From the NCBI GenBank assembly GCA_003614675.1, contig ML002411.1, forward strand, positions 1 to 33,246: a DNA stretch of 33,246 bases. The letters run 5' to 3'. The notes below the pieces were generated by a model, which worked only from the letters and a program-made list of their open reading frames with translations, was not told the origin of the DNA and ran no database searches. The position numbers were made by a program, and so were the translations under genes. This DNA is from Dimargaris cristalligena (lineage: Eukaryota). How positions within the stretch are numbered: position 1 is the stretch's first letter; the number at the start of each line of letters is the position of its first letter. Shown piece by piece: positions 11,269 to 33,246 of this stretch.

Positions 11269-11960
11269 ATGTCTCTGCCCTATATGTTGTTAAAACTTTC
11301 AGTCAAAGGGTAAACCTGAGGATTTCCTGAATAGTATAAACATTTTATATAAAGTGAGATATTCCCGCAAGTGATATTAGTAGCCACCCGTGGTTGGGAT
11401 AAACGCACTTGATAAAGCCGTTGATCTAGATAAATTGATATTTAGAATATGTGATATTTTTTTGAGTAGTATAAATTCATGGGGAAGTGGTAAATTTATT
11501 TCTAATACTCGGAGTGGTCTAATCTGTCACCCAAATCCAAATGTACAAGCCTGTGCCGCTGTTGTTGGGTTCTTAATTGGTCTTATGATTGGCCCCTTTT
11601 ACTCCCTGTGCCGACATTGCCATTATATCAGTCCCGTTTCACATACACATTTAGTTGATCTTTAAAAGCCACCCTTCTTTCGCAATACATATATGCACAT
11701 TTTACATCATGGTTTAGCAAGACCTAATCGAGACATATCTGACTCAAATCTATGTTTATATTCAATTAAACTCATGTCCACTAGAAAATATTATTGACCA
11801 ACAAGTATTTACCCATACCCTTAGCTTAACAAGAGTCACACATCTGAAGGTATTCTAGGCTGTTGTCTTATATCAAGGATCCTGACCAGTGCCTATGAAG
11901 CTTGGCACATTCTACAGACTAACACGGGCAGTTTCCATAAAAATCACTAATGTAGTTCAC

Positions 11961-12744
11961 TGTAACACATAATATACCAATATTTAAATATCCATCTTTT
12001 TAGCCAGTTTATTTATTCCTTCCATATATATGTATTAAATTACCTATATATACCCAATGGTAATTATACATCTGTACCCCCTTTTCTTAAGTATTACTCT
12101 TGTGAATACAACTATATTGATTTGTCAAATAATAATTACACTTACCCTATTATTCTTACTATTAGCCCATCTAATCCACCTTAATCTAGCTGGCTTAGAT
12201 ATCTGACCATATTAAGCCTTATAGCACCATATTAGCTTTCCCATAGTCACCCCCAGTACCATGGGATCATCCTTTATCATGTATAACTTTTCCCCCACCC
12301 AGACTCCACTTCTTTATACTAATCACTTAAGTACTAATCTGTTAAACTCTTCCAGTTATGATCAGAGTCTTCCAGATAATAGTAGCCATCTGGCTAGCCT
12401 ATTTACCTATACCTTAGTCTTAGTAGTATCCTTCCCTTAGGGCCTCCCTCTGGAGCCATCCCTATATATATATACCTGGGCTCTATTAGGACTAGTTAGA
12501 TTCCTTAGCTTATTCTTACCCCTTACTTAGTCAATAAACCCTATATGCACTTACTCCCCCTTATAGTAACTAGTAAGGATGCTTCTTGTATATCCCTTGC
12601 ATATACCTACTGTATCCTTTATTAGATAGTACTATACCTATACCTAATACTAGGAAACCTCTTAGCCAAGTCTAAGCCCTACCTACTGCTAGAAGCCTAT
12701 CTTTAGGACTCTTAATGGACTAAGAGTAGTAAACCTAAGTAATA
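11961..12744 (+). mobile_element. Heavily C>T/G>A-mutated LTR-like relic (probable solo LTR); left boundary uncertain
   Basis: Starts TGTAAC and ends GTAATA (a mutated GTGACA). A TATA-like run at ~12463 is followed by AATAAA at ~12533. Its right ~200 bp are homologous in inverted orientation to 33037-33246, which starts TGTCAC. No CpG. The TSD is not convincing. Confidence 0.6.
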
Positions 12745-13140
12745 CACACTTACTGTGGTCAAATCAAAACCTGGGTTTATTAGTAGGGCCTTGAGTTATA
12801 ATAGTTAGTTGTTTAGGGATAACTAATAAGATACTGCACAGTTGGGAATAGTGTAAAGGCCCTTACTTCCAGTTATCCTATCAGATGTTCAATGTCTCTG
12901 ACTAAGTACCTATTTTAGACCACCCATTAAATATTCCAAAATTTAGATCACTACCCTACTTAGATAGTCTTTCCATCACCCAGGACTATTTATAAATGAG
13001 AGAGATTCAGCCCAGCTGTATAATAAAGAATCTGTCAGATTAGGTAAATGGTACTGGTTAAAAATATGTATCCAGCCTTCTTCCCTATATATATATATAT
13101 TATTTAAAATTATATACAGCTGGGTTGCATTTAACCCATA

Positions 13141-14453
13141 TACACAGTCTGACCCAAAGGTTCTGTTACTGGTACTCTAAAATGAAAATGGCTTAATATT
13201 TTTATTTATTTTTTTATTTATTTAAAATAAGATCCATTTTCATTAATACACTACTGGAATTGCCTAAACAATGAGTGAAAGTAGCCTGGAAACCCCTCCT
13301 TTGGAATGCCCTTTATGATGTTGGTCCTGGCATCTTGGATGTCCTTTATGGGGTTGTAATGCTCCCCTTTTATGGCTAGCTTAAGTTTTGGGAACAGCCA
13401 GATGTTAGCTGGGGCTAGATCAGGTGAATATAGTGGGTGGTCTAGCATTACCATACCCCTTTTAGCTAAAAACATTTGGATAATTTTGTACTTGAGTATA
13501 GGCACATTATTATGGACAAGACTCCAGGATCCTCACTACTTGTACTTCAGCCTTACATAGTTAATCCTTGCCAATAGGCATATTAAGACTCCCAAGTAGT
13601 ACTAACTAGTGGCTATTTGGCCTTGGGGAGTGAATTCCTGGTGGATGATCCTCTTGGAGTTGAAGAAAACAGTAAGTAAGGTCTTGACTCAGCTTAGATG
13701 AAGGCACAACTTCTTTGGTCTTGGATCTCCAGTACCTACCCACTCAGAGCTGTCATGTTTTTTTAATAGCTCATATTAGAAGTACCAAGTCTTGTCCCTA
13801 GTGATAATGCTTCTGGTAAAGTTTTAGTCATTTTTACCCATTTTCTGCATGTCCAAGCTGTGGTCTACTCTGGATATCATTTAGTTATTAGTTAGCTGGT
13901 GGGGGATAAACTGGGCATAGACCTTTTTCAAGCACAAACCCTCAACCAGAATCTTGTTGATAGTGGACCTAGGTATTCTAGTTATACCCTTGAGCAATTG
14001 GGTGGTCATCCACCAGTCAGTTTTCAAGATATCAGCAACTATTTGGATATATTATTTGCTACAGCCTTCCTTTGGGCATCCTGAGCAGGAGTCATCCTCA
14101 ATCTCTTCCTGACTGACCTTCTTTAAAGCTTACAAACTAATAGAAAATAGTCTTAAGAGTTACAGTACCATCCCTATGGACTTTTTGGATTATCTCTAGG
14201 GTCTCATTGGCACTTTTTCCAGGCTTATAATATAACTTAATATTTGATCAAATTTCGAATTTAGAATCCATAATGAGAGAAGAAAAGTTGGGAGAAAAAT
14301 TGTAGTAAAAAAACTATAAACACTGGAGCCTTTAAATTTTCCCATGTGATAGGGTTTTTGTTTATCTATTTAAAACCATTTCACGCTAATAGATGGCGCC
14401 CGTAAAACCGATTTTACGGCCCCAGTGACAGAACTTTTGGGCCAGACCATGTA
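13141..14453 (-). mobile_element. Full-length (~1.31 kb) inactive mariner (Tc1/mariner, DD34D) DNA transposon
   Basis: ~32-bp TIRs: tacacagtctgacccaaaggttctgttactgg versus revcomp tacatggtctggcccaaaagttctgtcactgg. TA dinucleotides lie on both sides, and a transposase relic lies inside. Confidence 0.93.
13218..14271 (-). pseudogene. Mariner transposase pseudogene with multiple stops and a frameshift
   Basis: Reads MDSKFEI*SNIKLYYKPGKSANETLE (HTH), FIPHQL (WVPHEL motif), IITRDKTWYF (ITGDETW), LVHNNVP (LHDNAP), YSPDLAPANIWLFPKLK, and ends CINENGSYFK*. There are 34 residues between the second and third catalytic positions. Confidence 0.93.
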
Positions 14454-15152: not shown

Positions 15153-18100
15153 TTATTTGGAAGAATTCACCTCCTGTACCCATAAGCGGGCGTTGACGAA
15201 CAACCGGAACCAGGGTGAGTTTTCACCCCATTGACCCGCCTGACTCGGGGGCGCCCACGATAAGGCACTAGTCCGGGTGACACGTTCGGGGTGGGGCATC
15301 ATGGCCAGAATCCGGCCGTTGGGGGTGGTCAACCCGGTAATACCCCGCGGCGAACCGTTGGGATTAGCGGGATAGGCTTCGGCCACTTCGCCGTGACTGT
15401 CCACGTATTGCATGGCCACCAGACCCTGGGCGATACAGGCCTCCATGGCCGCAGTTTGGGCGGCCGGGGTGTCCCCGGGGAATTCGGCGCGGCCTTCACC
15501 GTGGGCCAGGGCCACCGGGAGGCGTGAACCCACCATGCCGCGCAGGAAAATACACGGCACGGCCGTCTTGGGGCTGTCGGTTCGACTGGCCTGGGATACG
15601 GCAGTAGCGTCGTTAGAGGTAGTACTATTGCTGTGGTCCTCCGGCGAATCCACCCACAGGCTTCCGGTGGGATTTACTTGGAGTCGACAGAAGCGGGCCT
15701 CGAACTGGTCACTCTTATTCCGCACCATCCGGGGCCAGTTTTCGGTACCGGGGATCAGTTCCTTAATGCGGGTCAGGAATTGGCAACCGTTGCACACCCC
15801 AAGGATAAAGGTGTCGTTACGCACCTGGATAAAGTGTTCTAGTTCTTTGCGAATCCGTTTGGACAGGAGACTGGACAGGGCCCAACCCGAGGCGGCGCCT
15901 AATACGTCACCGTAGGTGAAACCACCGCAGCAGGCCAGACCAGCAAAAGCGTCGAGGGAAAGTTTACCGGCCAGTAGGTCGGACATGTGAACATCAATCA
16001 CTTCAAACCCGGCACTGTGGAAGGCGTGGGCCATTTCTACTTGACCGTTGTTGCCTTGCTCCCGCATGATGGCCACCCGGGGTTGGTTGCTCGACAGAGA
16101 ACGGGCAATCGAAGGGCGGCAGTCCTGGAGCATTGCCGACTCATCCCCGGGCCGGTAGGTCAATTCGTAGGATAGGCCAATGTCACGAGTATCGGCCAGG
16201 GCCGTATATTCCTGCTCCGCGCATTCAATATGGTCGCGCAGGCGCTGCATCTGGTAGGAAGTATTGGCCCAGGTTTGGTACACTTGAATAATGGGTTCGC
16301 TGTACAGTACTCGGCCCTGGTGGGTAAAAGTCATGTTGGCAGTTTCGCCCTGGTTAGCCGCCTGGTGTACGAGCTCGCCTACTGAACCCAGGAGGTGGAT
16401 GTGTTGGGCCGGGAAACCGTGGGAAGTGAAGACCTCCAGGAAGGTCTGGTAGTGGGCGTCGGGGACTTGCACCACGGCCCCCAGTTCTTCGTTGAAGAGG
16501 GAAGCAACTGGGTCGGCCCCCAGACCGGTGAGGTCCACCGACACGGCCGTTCGCCCAGCCATGGCCATTTCCGCAACGGTGGCGAAGAGACCGCCGTCGC
16601 TTCGGTCGTGGTAGGCCAGCACCAGGCTGTCCCGGCCGCCGTAGGCCTGGCGGGCTTCTACGACACGGTCCAATTGTTCAGCGGAGCCGCCATCCAGGGA
16701 CGTCCGGTGCACCGGGCGTTTGGTACCACGGATATCATCGGTGGGAGGGTTCTTGAAATCCTCGCGGATAGCCGCCGTATGGGCCGGCCCATGGTACCGC
16801 TTGCAGGCGATGAGGGCAGCATAGAAGGCCTTGAGCAGCTCGGGTTGATCCACATCCGGGGCGGTTTCGCCGAGGCGGTTGAACACCTGGGCCAGGGCAG
16901 ACCCACCGAGACGCTGGCGACCGGCACCCAAATCAATGAGAACCAGGGAAGTACTGCCTGAGAGATGCTCGTAACCGGGGACGTTGGGATGCTGCAGCTG
17001 AGGAGTGATGCTGCGGCGTACATCAGTGACGGGGGAGAAGCCCGTTACAATGAGGGACAAGGGGGAGGTCACTTCGACCGCCTGGCCCTGGTAGGGATGG
17101 CTGGGATCACTCTGTTCGAGCCAGGTCATTTTCATGCTCATGGAGTCCTTGCCCACGGGGATGGAAATACCCAGAGCGGGACACAATTCCATACCCACCG
17201 CCATAACGGCTTCGTACAGGGCCGCACCTTCACCAGGGGTGGAAGCCGAGCACATCCAATTAGCGGAGAGGCGGATGCTATCCAGGCCGGGAATATCCGC
17301 GGCGATCAGGTTAGTGAGGGTCTCACCAACCGCCATGCGCGCCGAGGCGGCCGCATTGATGAGAGCGATGGGGGGGCGCTCACCCGTGGCCATGGCCTCA
17401 CCCGAGCAGGAGGAATCGGAGGTGGCGGGACAGAAGGGGGTGTCTTGGCAGTAACCAGTGGCAGTCACGGCCACATCGGCCACGGGCACCTGCCAGGGAC
17501 CTACCATCTGTTCCTGGGCGATCAACCCCGACACGGAACGGTCACCGATGGTGATGAGGAAGGACTTGCTCGCCACGGCCGGGAACTGGAGAACCCGGTC
17601 AGCGGCGGCCCGGATACGATCAGGTAATCCGTTGCTGTCCTGGGGCAGGGATGGCAGGTAGCTAGCCAGGCTGGAGTCGAGGGAGGTTGGGCGGCGGACT
17701 ACGGTCTGGTCGGACCGATGCATCTTGGGGGGTTTGCCGAATAGCACATCCATAGGCAGGTCAATGACATGGTGGTTGGGGGTACCCTGGTGGTCGCGGT
17801 CAGTCACGCGCAGGTGGAGCTCTTCGGTGGCGACACCGACCACAGACATGGGGCAGCGCTCACGGGTCGTGATGGCCTGGAAAAGCTCCAAGGCGTCGGG
17901 GTGGACGGCGCAAACGTAGCGTTCCTGGGATTCGTTACACCAGATTTCCATGGGGGACATGCTAGGGTCATCCACGGGGATATCCCGCAATTCGATGATG
18001 GCCCCGAGACCACTGTCGTGAACCAATTCGGGTAGCGCATTGGATAACCCACCAGCACCCACATCGTGAATGAAGAGGATCGGGTTATCCTCCGGGGCGT

Positions 18101-19934
18101 AGGACGAGCAACTGTCAATCACCTGCTGGACACGGCGTTGCATTTCCGGGTTCTCGCGCTGGACCGAATCGAAGTCCAGGGCCGCCGAGCTAGCACCCGA
18201 AGCCATGGACGAGGCCGCACCACCACCGAGACCAATCAGCATCGCGGGACCGCCTAATACTACGAGGTGGGCACCGGGAGAGAAGGGTTTCTTGAGCATG
18301 TTGACCTGGCGGACGTTACCGACACCACCGGCAATCATGATGGGCTTGTGGAAACCGCGGAATCGGCCCTGCTGGACGCCGAGGGGGGCATCTTCGTAGA
18401 GGGCGGACTCGTGTTCGGCGAAAGTTCGGAAGAACCCGGTTAGACAGGGCCGGCCGAATTCGTTGTTGAAGGAGGCACCACCGATGGGGGCTTCCAGCAT
18501 GATATCCAACGGGGACGCGATGTGCAGGGGCTTCTGCAACTGGGCTAGAGGGCCCTCGGTTTCCCAGGGCCGCTCGGCCCCGGGGATGCGGAGATGGGAG
18601 ACGATAAACCCGGTCAGGCCGGCCTTGGGCTTGGAGCCGCGGCCTACACTTCCTTCGTCCCGGATTTCACCACCCGAGCCGGTGGCGGCACCGGCAAAGG
18701 GGGACACGGCGGTGGGATGGTTGTGAGTCTCGACCTTGCAGAGAATATGGATGGGCTCGTTCTGGTAATGGTATACGTTGGGGGAGCCGGAGTGGGCCGA
18801 ATCTTTGGGTGAAACGGGGGGCGCGGGGACGAAGCGAACGCCCGGGGGGCCTTCCAGGACGGCGGCATTGTCGCTGTAAGCCGACAGGACGCCCTTGGGG
18901 TTCTGGACGAAAGTATTTTTGATCATTTTGAATAGCGAATGGGGTTTATCGACTCCGTCCAGGGTCCAGGAGGCGTTGAAAATCTTGTGACGGCAGTGCT
19001 CGGAGTTGACCTGAGCGAACATCATCAGCTCCATGTCGGTGGGGTTACGCAGCAGGGCGGCGGTGGGCAAGGTAGCCGAGCCGGGAGCGGAGGCGCCGGT
19101 AAAAACCTGGACCAGGTAGTCCATTTCGTCGTCGGCCAGGGCCAGACCCCAAGTACGGTTGGCCTGCACCAGGGTAGCGCGGGCCTGGGCGAAGGACACC
19201 TGGGACTCGTCCGTGGGAGCGGTGGGCTGATCGGCGAGTAGGGGCACCCGCTTCAGCGGACGCGGCAGCCCCAACTCGAAGAGATCATTGAAGGACGGTA
19301 GACAGTCCCACACGGTCTGGGTCATACGGTCCGAGAAGAGGGCCAGCAGCGGCTGGGCCAGGGGGTCGCTAGGGGCCGGGAGGGTGGTATTAATATCACC
19401 TTGGTTGGTGGTATCGACGGTCAGGAAGTACACCACGCCCCGTTCGATGCGCTTGACGCAATGATCCAGGTGGCAACAGTTGGCAATATCGGTAGCCTTG
19501 GACGACCAGGGAGAAATAGTGCCGCGGCGGGGCAGGACCAGGAACATTTGGTGGGGGGAGTTATTCACTGGGCGGAAGACCACACCGGCCGGGTCGGTGC
19601 CGGTGGTCTGGGCGTGGACCAGGTTGGGCTGGTTCTCATGGAGGTAGCCCTCGGTATAGAGGAGATCGGTGGCCTGGGAATCGGCGCTGGGGCCGGTGTG
19701 AGTGGTGAGGGCGCGCGGGGGCGTGGGCATGAGCCGCTGTAGTACTTGGTAGTTGGGATCGTTATCGAGGGGGCCTTCCGGGAAGGCGAAGCCGGGCTGG
19801 AGTTCCACAAAGTGGATATAGGCCGAGCACACGGACTTGACGGACGGGTGCAGCTGGCGCACCTGGCGGAGCAGGGTCTGGCTCCAGAAGTCGGTCAGGG
19901 CCGGCCCGCTGGGCATAAGGAGCATGCTAGTCAT
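15153..19934 (-). CDS. ADE6: Phosphoribosylformylglycinamidine synthase (large PurL/PFAS), intronless, 1593 aa
   Basis: Motifs [68 protein letters not shown] and YHDRSDGG. The glutaminase triad lies in GVCNGCQ and MMPHPER. ACCATG start context. Confidence 0.98.
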
Positions 19935-21218
19935 GGTGATATGGTGTATTGTGTTGTGTAGTGGTTATAGGAAAGAGACGGTTCGAGCTGCCGACTAAGC
20001 CCGGCAAGAATGGATAGGAGAGTGTAGTTTAAAAAGGGAAGAAAGAGGGACTGGCTTGGGAAAAACCGAGGGAGCTGTCCCTTTGAGAAAGGGTTCAGGG
20101 AAAACGGGTGGTGTGGGTTGGGGCAAACCCTACTTGAAACAGTCTCCTCTCTAATCGAAACATGCGGGTAAGAAAAACAACGGGCCCAGCCAATTGGCTC
20201 AGTCAGTCGCTACTATGAGAGAAATGAATTATACAGGCATTATATGTTCCCTACACGTTGTGACTGGATCAGTGGTTTTGGGCCACTGATAGTGCGATTC
20301 ATCTGAATCATTATCCCCAACCTTGTTAATTGCTGGGCCAATCCCCCGCCTATTTCTACCCACTATCCTATGATATATGTCCGGTGCGGGGAGATAGCAG
20401 TACATCTGTGGACAGTAAGCAGCAAATATAGACTCCCGTCATACCCAGAAAATAAGATGGCTATTCCGCAGTAACGCAATGGTAGGCATCTCCTAGGCGC
20501 CGATCCAACACCATGGCGCTCGCACCTTAAAGAGCGACTTCATCAAAGATGGAGTTGAATAGCGCAGGCTTGGAGGGCCGGGTGGTGGTAGACTATAGGG
20601 CATAGTTGGGGTTCATCTGCACGTGTAAGAATTAGGTTCAGACATTAAACCACATTTAACCATATGGGAGAAGTTCATCTAAGCTGTATAACGAAAAATC
20701 CATTAGATTCGGCCAATATTACTAGTTAAAAATAAAATTCCCATATATTCTCCCATACACATATAATGTAAGCCCTTATATTGCTGGGCTGAATTTCACC
20801 CATATACATGCAAAAACACCCCACCGCTTAATTCATGCAGTTGGGCTCAGCAGTCCAATTGAACCGGGTTGAAGGGAAGATGAGGACAATACGTACTTCT
20901 CTCCCAGTCAAGGTCACGAGGTTCTTGGTGAGTTGACCAACTAGCTATAAACAGTGGAAAATCTGGGGAAACATTATTTCTCCCAGACAGTCGCCCTTCT
21001 GGCTGCAGGCTGGAGCCCTCTGCTCCGTATCCGCTATACCCCGTCTGCTTTGGCCCGCGCCTTTGGAGGCTGACCTTTGCCCATCGCATTCCCACTTTCC
21101 CAGAAGTATAACATTCCCTTCCCCCCCCCGGCCTTTATGCCTTCCCGTCCTCTCTGGCTACATACCCCGCCTGCGGTTATTCCCCCTCTTCTCCACCTCC
21201 CCCGGCCTTCCATTTTAT

Positions 21219-32448: not shown

Positions 32449-32456
32449 TATAAATA
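32449..32456 (+). promoter_or_regulatory. Putative TATA box (TATAAATA) of the small secreted peptide gene
   Basis: Canonical TATA about 140 nt upstream of the ACCATGG start at 32593, followed by a C/A-rich leader. Confidence 0.5.
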
Positions 32457-32592
32457 CATATGCTCACATTCTCTATATTCTCAACCATCATCCACATTCC
32501 ACTACAATCCCCTCCCTCTTAAAGTATCTCTACCACCACCACCACCCACATCTCCTTTCACCAACCGTCTCCTTACCACCCAACAATTCACC

Positions 32593-32823
32593 ATGGCCCG
32601 TTTCCTGTCCCCCATTGTCCTTCTCGCCGTTGTCCTCGCTGCTTCGACTACTACTGCCCAGAACCCCGCTGAGACCCAGGCCACCTTTCACCATCACAAT
32701 GTCATTACCAGAAACAAGTTTGCCCTCAGGGGAGCTGCTGCTGGCAGTTTTACTTTAGGCAAGACTAGTGCCCTTGGGGGTGCCCTTATTGGCCATGCCA
32801 CTGACAAGAAGTACAGTCATTAA
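32593..32823 (+). CDS. Small secreted Gly/Ala-rich (glycine-zipper-like) peptide, 76 aa
   Basis: Strong Kozak context (CACCATGG), signal peptide MARFLSPIVLLAVVLAASTTTA, a GAAAG..LGGALIGH tail, and an upstream TATA. Confidence 0.7.
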   Translation: MARFLSPIVLLAVVLAASTTTAQNPAETQATFHHHNVITRNKFALRGAAAGSFTLGKTSALGGALIGHATDKKYSH

Positions 32824-33036
32824 GTCTGCCTATGTGAGTTGCCATCACTGGTTAGCATTACTTACCTGGTTTACTGGTTGAGAATTATAGATGTTTTTAG
32901 TTCTACCAAAGACAAACTACTAAAATAGGACACTGGTGTATGTTAACTCTAGCTGGGTTATCCCCTGACTCTTTAGTTAGCCCATTTTAGAGCTCCCTGT
33001 TTATTTATATACTGTTCATCCAATGGATTTTATTGA

Positions 33037-33246
33037 TGTCACCCGAGTTAACCACTCTTAGTCCGTCAAGAGTCTCGAGGATAGGCTTCTAACAGTAGGT
33101 GGGGCGTTGGATACGGCCAAGCGGGCTACTAGTGTTAGGGGCGGTGACAAGACTAACCGAATAAAGCAAGCGTAGGACATAGGCGAGGTCCGTGCACTAG
33201 ATGCACACTTACTGGTCAGTACTAGGGGGTGAGTGTATATAGAGTA
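33037..33246 (-). mobile_element. End of an LTR-like repeat, truncated by the window edge; relative of 11961-12744
   Basis: Begins TGTCAC. The segment actcttagtccgtcaagagtctcgaggataggcttctaacagtaggtgggg matches the revcomp of ~12678-12728 (actcttagtccattaagagtcctaaagataggcttctagcagtaggtaggg). Confidence 0.65.

Follow-up and report, generated by a model that had tools for sequence, protein, structure and literature searches.

The 33,246-bp window analysed here (positions 1 to 33,246 of the forward strand of contig ML002411.1, assembly GCA_003614675.1) comes from Dimargaris cristalligena, a zoopagomycete and no ascomycete, which belongs to the Dimargaritales, the earliest-diverging order of the Kickxellomycotina (Zoopagomycota). 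Between the 3′ ends of two convergent genes, the window carries a block of repeats, chiefly a dead mariner transposon and a very high-copy non-coding dispersed repeat (repeat B), from which CpG is entirely absent (Table 1). A preliminary description, made from the letters alone, had noted the absence of CpG between 11926 and 14256 amid CpG-rich neighbours and had proposed a defence acting on CpG and CpA, similar to repeat-induced point mutation (RIP), should the source be an early-diverging fungus; classical RIP in an ascomycete, which it had named as the contrary case, does not apply to this source.

The absence of CpG is confirmed by counting. The window contains 1596 CpG in total, and its longest CpG-free gap extends over 2331 bp from the CpG at 11925 to that at 14256, the runner-up being 377 bp. 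The base counts of the block (489 C and 368 G) give an expectation of 77.2 CpG, and 2000 mononucleotide shuffles yielded a mean of 77.2 and a minimum of 47, against the 0 observed. Outside the block, the observed/expected ratio (o/e) of CpG in the window is 0.84; such loss of CpG in the repeats, with genes keeping a normal level, is what decay of 5-methylcytosine (5mC) would predict. Long exons have ~60% GC and intergenic DNA ~40% GC, and CpG is near expectation in both except in two CpG-free stretches.

Table 1. Position, strand and basis of the features in the CpG-free block and of their counterparts elsewhere in the window
Feature	Position	Strand	Basis or remark
CpG-free block	11926..14256	none	0 CpG in 2331 bp, ~77 expected
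Left part of block	11926..12083	none	single-copy at at least 80% identity in four runs, depth like that of the flanking contig; 28.5% GC; 0 CpG
Repeat B, very high-copy non-coding dispersed repeat	12084..12767 (core ~12165-12735)	+	summed contig depth highest here
Low-copy spacer between repeats	12768..12995	none	depth and composition; 0 CpG
Palindromic element of 147 bp, like a miniature inverted-repeat transposable element (MITE)	12996..13142	none	arms 12993-13022 and 13113-13142
Dead mariner, ~1309 bp	13143..14451	-	TA flanks on both sides, inverted terminal repeats (ITRs), transposase match
Mariner ITR, 3′ end of element	13143..13172	+	departs from its partner ITR by G>A and C>T
Transposase pseudogene	13203..14271	-	gap-free alignment to 349 residues of P0122; many stop codons
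Mariner terminal part: first five codons, 5′ untranslated region, ITR	14257..14451	-	five further CpG; nearly single-copy at at least 80% identity
Mariner ITR, 5′ end of element	14422..14451	-	ITR comparison
MITE-like second copy, outside block (control pair)	20664..20808	+	window self-comparison
Repeat B, partial second copy at contig end	33044..33246	-	51% GC, 11 CpG; less-mutated comparator

The dead mariner

The element in the right part of the block has a helix-turn-helix (HTH) plus catalytic domain, a DD34D motif, ITRs, TA flanks and a length of ~1.3 kb, and is a mariner of the Tc1/mariner superfamily. The ITR core of 26 nt lies at 13147-13172 (+) and again at 14422-14447 (-), a match that none of 100 shuffles reproduced; the flanks are TA-rich, and ATATA precedes both ends of the element. 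The read-through of the transposase matches Pfam PF01359 (Transposase_1; E = 2.6e-6) and, in the PDB, SETMAR (5.6e-19) and Mos1 (2.1e-15). Its intact relative P0122, a protein of 372 amino acids with domains PF17906, PF01359 and PF13358 (N-terminal HTH followed by Transposase_1/DDE_3), is identical to it at 251 of 349 residues (71%, BLASTP on the read-through), and the sole indel between the two is a 4-bp insertion near 14109-14112.

In P0122, the catalytic triad consists of D181, D276 and D311, the last lying five residues beyond the Asp of an SPD motif at 306, within APAD; 34 residues separate D276 from D311. Both D276 and D311 are replaced by Asn in the window copy (HNNV and APAN), so that two of the three catalytic Asp residues are lost. 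The protein changes listed in the preliminary description are real, because IVTGDETWCF, HDNAPAH and APADFW of P0122 correspond to IITRDKTWYF, HNNVPIL and APANIW in the window, and the codons that it reported (cat aat aat gtg, Arg to TGA, Gln to TAA and Trp to TAG) are all present. The length of ~1.3 kb, the ~30-bp ITRs, the flanking TA and the HTH and DD34D transposase are as in Mos1 and Hsmar1 (SETMAR), from which the Dimargaris element differs in being a dead fungal copy with many stop codons and two catalytic Asp residues changed to Asn.

Because the ITRs place its end at 14451, the mariner reaches ~195 bp past the CpG-free block, and the CpG at 14256, 14384, 14397, 14401, 14409 and 14417 fall inside it. 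The closest named relatives and clusters of the transposase (P0122 to P0126) are arthropod and nematode mariners, the best named match being a spider SETMAR-like protein with 45% identity. On the basis of such relationships, the mariner may have reached the fungus horizontally.

Anatomy of the repeat nest

Five public sequencing runs of one organism contain the stretch, with no RNA run listed among them. Contigs from four runs were aligned to a 3401-bp stretch at at least 80% identity, and the window was also compared with itself. The depth figures of the contigs vary more than 10-fold among runs and are therefore not taken as copy numbers. Each run gave 805-1447 contig records over the stretch, most of which fall within repeat B, mainly at 80-95% identity. 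The block had been described as ~2.3 kb of transposon DNA; its coordinates hold, and it is composed of a repeat nest with low-copy spacers rather than of a single transposon.

Repeat B has a strong skew of C over G and a TpA o/e of 1.61. Scans of 11926-13142 for tRNA, Rfam families, tandem repeats and six-frame Pfam domains yielded no identification, and a search by eye for TG..CA ends and a target duplication found none that were convincing. The previous labelling of this upstream repeat as a long terminal repeat (LTR) is unsupported, because no coding remnant, tRNA or Rfam family identifies it and none of its six read-through frames has a Pfam match. The two MITE-like copies are 69.5% identical, and the copy in the block directly adjoins the mariner ITR. 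In one contig (run X4), 12730 is followed directly by 14291 and the 1560 bp between them are missing, the shorter side of the join comprising just 25 letters; this could be an empty-site allele or a chance join between repeats.

Substitution spectrum of the mariner

The P0122 protein was taken to represent the ancestor, and parsimony was used to infer how each of the 98 changed codons, among the 349 aligned, had been altered. The resulting 106 base changes comprise 89 C>T or G>A changes (33 C>T and 56 G>A on the coding strand), five reverse transitions and 12 transversions. Denominators for each dinucleotide context were restricted to C or G whose neighbour is fixed by the amino acid.

Every CGN codon for Arg has lost its CpG (21/21; C was hit 14 times and G 11 times), and four of these codons are now TAN, a change that requires a second hit in TpG/CpA context. 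In CpA/TpG context, CAx>TAx is found at 6/25 sites and TGx>TAx at 6/11. Eleven of these 12 changes are simple single hits, and nine of the 11 are at residues conserved in P0123 or P0124, all nine falling at Cys, Trp or Gln. The remaining contexts are little affected: CCx>TCx accounts for 0/16, GGx>GAx for 0/24, AGx>AAx for 3/18 and CTx>TTx for 0/16, the last class being blind to CTR>TTR, while 11 Leu codons are now TTR. After pooling of the clean sites, CpA/TpG is changed at 11/36 (11-12 hits), compared with 3/84 for CpC (Fisher p = 9e-5) and 5/66 for CpT (p = 0.004).

A similar order is obtained from sites whose neighbour is a wobble base, classified by the base that is present now. For C at codon position 2, the proportion changed is 0/18 before C, 0/21 before T, 8/22 before A and 5/5 before G; for G at codon position 1, it is 3/26 after G, 2/27 after A, 19/44 after T and 8/9 after C, the one unchanged site being the CpG retained at 14256.

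Along the mariner, C>T and G>A changes are not grouped by strand (42 runs observed, 42.5 expected). In the four sequencing runs, other copies are set apart from the window chiefly by transitions, which go either way (323 transition and 89 transversion places in the X1 run), and this indicates that the copies were hit independently. As an alternative ancestor, the other mariner copies were considered over 13918-14242 and rejected, the best-supported alternative letters not reproducing P0122; they cannot be used for this purpose because they too carry mutations, at some places more of them than the copy in the window does.

Repeat B, the MITE pair and composition indices

A second comparison comes from the incomplete repeat B at the end of the contig. 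When this end copy is the starting point, the block copy shows C>T or G>A changes at 10/17 CpG, 10/13 CpA, 2/23 CpT and 2/21 CpC sites, and they make up 24 of the 46 differences; in the reverse direction, the counts are 0/4 for CpA, 6/33 for CpT and 0/14 for CpC. The excess at CpA over CpT and CpC combined (10/13 and 4/44) is significant (p = 5e-6). Because the alignment is short (93 bp) and only 77% identical, these counts are supporting evidence and no proof. CpA is thus above background in both repeats, which is contrary to what the preliminary description had set out as the mark of ordinary 5mC decay. Its suggestion that ancestral CpG became TpA also has a basis, in that several CG of the end copy face TA in the block copy, in addition to the four CGN codons of the mariner that are now TAN. 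The MITE pair (147 bp) shows no bias of direction or context, with changes at 4/17 CpC, 5/19 CpA, 5/13 CpT and 2/4 CpG sites and similar proportions in the reverse direction.

RIP is conventionally diagnosed from a high TpA/ApT and a low (CpA+TpG)/(ApC+GpT). These indices are 1.10 and 1.26 for the mariner, 1.61 and 0.73 for repeat B in the block, and 3.0 and 0.61 for the CpG-retaining end copy. By the usual thresholds, the mariner scores as not RIPed and repeat B as RIPed, and the CpG-retaining copy of repeat B scores higher still. The indices, which the preliminary description had proposed as a check, were therefore computed and do not discriminate here. Because the end copy outscores the mutated block copy, and has a TpA o/e of 1.76 despite its retained CpG, the TpA richness of repeat B is partly native. 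Unique intergenic stretches of the window keep a CpG o/e of 0.59-0.86 and have (CpA+TpG)/(ApC+GpT) values of 0.95-1.29, with no CpA/TpG deficit, and the similar transition load that might have been expected there if the pattern were general is not found.

Borders of the CpG-free domain

The CpG-free domain crosses the borders of the repeats, because it covers the single- or low-copy segments 11926-12083 and 12768-12995 and ends inside the mariner. Its flanks are partly depleted of CpG (left flank o/e 0.45, right flank 0.67). The second CpG-free stretch of the window, at 32667-33043 (377 bp), has an o/e of 0.06 and extends over the 3′ half of a small unique open reading frame (ORF), 32449-32823, together with its downstream flank. 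This ORF begins like a signal peptide, and the CpG-free stretch adjoins the end copy of repeat B with its 11 CpG. Near the left border of the block, a run from another study (X3) differs from the window at 11636 (G>A), 11698 (C>T), 11789 (T>C) and 12003 (G>A), which is read from the aligned contigs as strain-level variation beside the block.

Possible origin of the mutations

Because two unrelated repeats show changes at CpG and CpA above those at CpT and CpC, the data support the view that the block repeats of D. cristalligena, at this one locus and in these two families, carry C>T hypermutation at CpG and CpA that goes beyond plain CpG decay. As judged from the alignments, conversion depends on the 3′ neighbour of the cytosine: CpG is saturated, CpA/TpG is changed at ~1/3-3/4 of sites, CpT is changed rarely and CpC almost never. 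Such dependence on a 3′ neighbour (G, then A) is the signature of an enzyme of the cytosine-5 methyltransferase type and not that of random decay.

The preferred explanation, to which about an even chance is given, is that the dead repeats form a silenced island which is chronically methylated and then undergoes deamination. DNMT1-family cytosine-5 methyltransferases would hold the island methylated, at CpG fully and at CpA partly, and 5-methylcytosines or enzyme-bound intermediates would deaminate to T across many generations. The outcome would be RIP-like, with a chromatin or methylation domain as the unit acted on instead of each duplicated segment. Chronic methylation would explain why the borders are domain-like and the flanks partly depleted, why strand tracts are lacking and why TpG/CpA is in excess in the mariner (1.26). 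As for the defence proposed in the preliminary description, its mutation pattern is borne out by the counts in the mariner and repeat B, whereas its active, repeat-triggered nature is not, because the borders do not match those of the repeats and strand tracts are lacking.

Several observations weigh against chronic methylation. The last 195 bp of the mariner, which keep CpG, are nearly single-copy, as a homology-dependent process would predict, and the missing bias of the MITE pair also fits a length threshold. CpG-specific maintenance enzymes such as DNMT1 and DNMT5 leave the CpA hits unexplained, so that a CpA-capable enzyme must be assumed. CpG is saturated (0 of ~77 remaining) while ~4-8% of the cytosines outside CpG and CpA have changed, which fits a burst-like mutator better; passive 5mC decay has a rate ratio of 10- to 20-fold in mammals, and the ratio observed here is far higher. 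The whole case consists of one locus and two repeat families, and P0122, compared at the protein level, is a relative and not a proven ancestor.

A true analogue of RIP, in which duplications recognised by homology would be burst-mutated at CpG and CpA by a non-RID enzyme of the DNMT1 superfamily, probably around the sexual (zygospore) phase and with leakage into linkers and flanks, is possible but rather unlikely. It would account for the preference for CpG and CpA in both repeat families, for the saturated loss of CpG at a low background divergence of a few percent, for the presence of only one indel against 106 inferred base changes, for the sparing of the nearly single-copy mariner end and for the unbiased 147-bp MITE pair. 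Also in its favour, most repeats of the genome belong to the 80-95% identity class, and long copies that are nearly identical are few (Badet and Croll, 2025, supplement 3); the combined CpG and CpA signature matches that reported for Tuber and cited for Aspergillus (Amselem et al., 2015; PMC4352252). On the other hand, RID/Masc1 is reported in Pezizomycotina only (PMC9963178) or in Ascomycota only (PMC4352252), as far as the accessible portions of these papers extend. Within the window, strand-coherent tracts are absent, CpG is missing from the single- and low-copy segments of the block as well as from the repeats, the unique ORF segment 32667-32823 lacks CpG although the adjoining repeat copy retains 11, and the mariner fails the classical RIP indices at their usual thresholds. 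The broader proposition that Zoopagomycota possess a homology-triggered, RIP-type hypermutation defence at CpG and CpA, mediated by a non-RID enzyme of the DNMT1 superfamily, is somewhat less likely still.

Ordinary CpG-only decay of a methylated transposon together with drift, in which the CpA signal would arise spuriously from letting P0122 and the end copy represent the ancestors, is improbable. The composition of the mariner, in which TpG and CpA are in excess and TpA/ApT is just 1.10, would agree with such decay, as would the TpA richness that the CpG-retaining end copy of repeat B already has, the low identity of the short repeat B alignment and the up to 11 CTR>TTR changes at Leu that are invisible to the codon test. 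These points have to be set against the nine of 11 clean CpA hits that fall at conserved Cys, Trp or Gln residues, the significant excess of CpA over CpC and CpT in the mariner, the same order of contexts in the unrelated repeat B and the four CGN codons whose conversion to TAN needs a second hit in TpG/CpA context.

Cytidine deaminases of the AID/APOBEC type read the 5′ neighbour of the cytosine. Targeting of transposons by such an enzyme, or transcription-linked deamination of single strands, would agree with the strong C>T/G>A bias, the scarcity of other changes and the larger number of G>A (56) than of C>T (33) on the coding strand, but is very improbable here, because conversion is governed by the 3′ neighbour (G or A), which is also what matters to methyltransferases, hits fall on either strand throughout the element and form no runs, and non-transcribed spacers are also affected. 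Finally, arrival of the sequences in a CpG-poor state, for instance of the mariner from a CpG-depleted animal genome with nothing having happened in the fungus, would suit the arthropod and nematode relatives of the transposase but can practically be dismissed: it is contradicted by the 21 Arg positions of P0122 that are now TGN, CAN or TAN and are derivable only from CGN by transitions, and also by the CpG retained in the last 195 bp of the same mariner, by the 11 CpG in the other copy of repeat B and by the independent transitions through which the copies differ.

Comparison with known systems

RIP of Neurospora crassa prefers CpA >> CpT > CpG > CpC, requires RID, is premeiotic and acts on duplications. 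The Dimargaris block resembles it in the dominance of C:G>T:A changes, in the death of the element by point mutations and not by indels, in CpA>TpA conversion and in some spread to adjacent DNA; the two differ in that CpG ranks first in Dimargaris (21/21 in the mariner and 10/17 in repeat B), where CpA is also raised (11-12/36 and 10/13). CpG hypermutation of transposons in Microbotryum and rusts was reportedly described by Horns and co-workers in 2012. In these basidiomycetes, as in Dimargaris, CpG (there TpCpG) is hypermutated in transposons beyond the range of RID, and the available part of a comparative study attributes this to a Masc2/DNMT1-type enzyme and 5mC deamination (Amselem et al., 2015; PMC4352252). 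The same part reports the pattern of Microbotryum and rusts as CpG-only (PMC4352252), whereas CpA/TpG is hit 4 to 8 times more than CpT or CpC in Dimargaris.

More generally, the accessible text of Amselem et al. (2015; PMC4352252) ties the CpA/CpT signatures of ascomycetes to RID/Masc1 and the CpG-only signature of basidiomycetes to a Masc2-type enzyme, and gives CpG plus CpA for Tuber, with the same cited for Aspergillus. The closest likeness in context is with RIP in Tuber melanosporum and Aspergillus/Penicillium, where repeats undergo C>T changes at CpG and CpA and genes are unaffected (PMC4352252). These fungi are Pezizomycotina with a gene of the RID/Masc1 class, whereas Dimargaris is a zoopagomycete, a group in which RID is reported to be absent in the part of the relevant review at hand (PMC9963178); moreover, CpG loss is complete in Dimargaris and ranks above CpA. 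According to the same part of that review, RID is exclusive to Pezizomycotina, and DIM-2-like and DNMT1 homologues exist in some early-diverging fungi (PMC9963178). DNMT1 and UHRF1 are both listed for two members of the Kickxellales, Coemansia reversa and Linderina pennispora, with a Dim2-column entry for Coemansia and 5mC marked as Y for Linderina (Funabiki et al., 2023, supplement 1; PMC10538959).

Outside the Dikarya, RIP has been suggested within Zoopagomycota for Zoophthora radicans (Entomophthorales), as calls made with caveats from RIP-index windows in the accessible part of the report (eLife 2024; PMC11105155), whereas the Dimargaris pattern consists of context-resolved counts against an intact relative and comes from a different subphylum, Kickxellomycotina. 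A kingdom-wide k-mer screen, to the extent that its text and tables were available, describes RIP-like signatures as unique to ascomycetes, lists the D. cristalligena genome with 4/0/0 enriched k-mers and the status no_rip (Table S14), and assigns it 2.19 Mb of repeats, all but a small part of them (2.11 Mb) unclassified (Badet and Croll, 2025, PLoS Biol). Because Leptosphaeria maculans is also listed there as no_rip, the screen has blind spots (Badet and Croll, 2025, Table S14). A literature search found no paper on methylation or RIP in Dimargaris, and in a search for RIP in Zoopagomycota, early-diverging fungi or Mucoromycota the relevant results were confined to the papers in eLife 2024 and PLoS Biol 2025.

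If the interpretation is correct, a mutator acting on CpG and CpA in Kickxellomycotina would push methyltransferase-linked mutagenesis of repeats deeper into the fungal tree, or would represent an independent invention. To our knowledge, Pezizomycotina are the only fungi with demonstrated RIP, and only some basidiomycetes are known for CpG-only hypermutation. The pattern would also point to a CpA-capable methyltransferase where only machinery of the DNMT1/UHRF1 type has been catalogued, and that in relatives only. A survey of methyltransferases across fungi published by Bewick and colleagues in 2019 is said to include tables that may already list those of D. cristalligena. Should a RIP-type defence be the true explanation, RIP-like genome defence would predate the Dikarya or have arisen a second time. 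Screens based on k-mers or RIP indices can overlook a signature of this kind; a RIP-type defence would be missed by them because its main product is loss of CpG and not gain of TpA.

Neighbouring gene

The ORF of 1603 codons at 15153-19964 (-) encodes phosphoribosylformylglycinamidine (FGAM) synthase; its best match, a D. cristalligena protein in NCBI, is 100% identical, and the next ones, from other Dimargaritales, have 61-65% identity. The public FGAM synthase model of D. cristalligena has 1379 amino acids and covers 79% of the first 600 residues, and the relatives in Dimargaritales, at 1514-1597 amino acids, are fully covered. The deposited gene model probably lacks part of the N-terminus.

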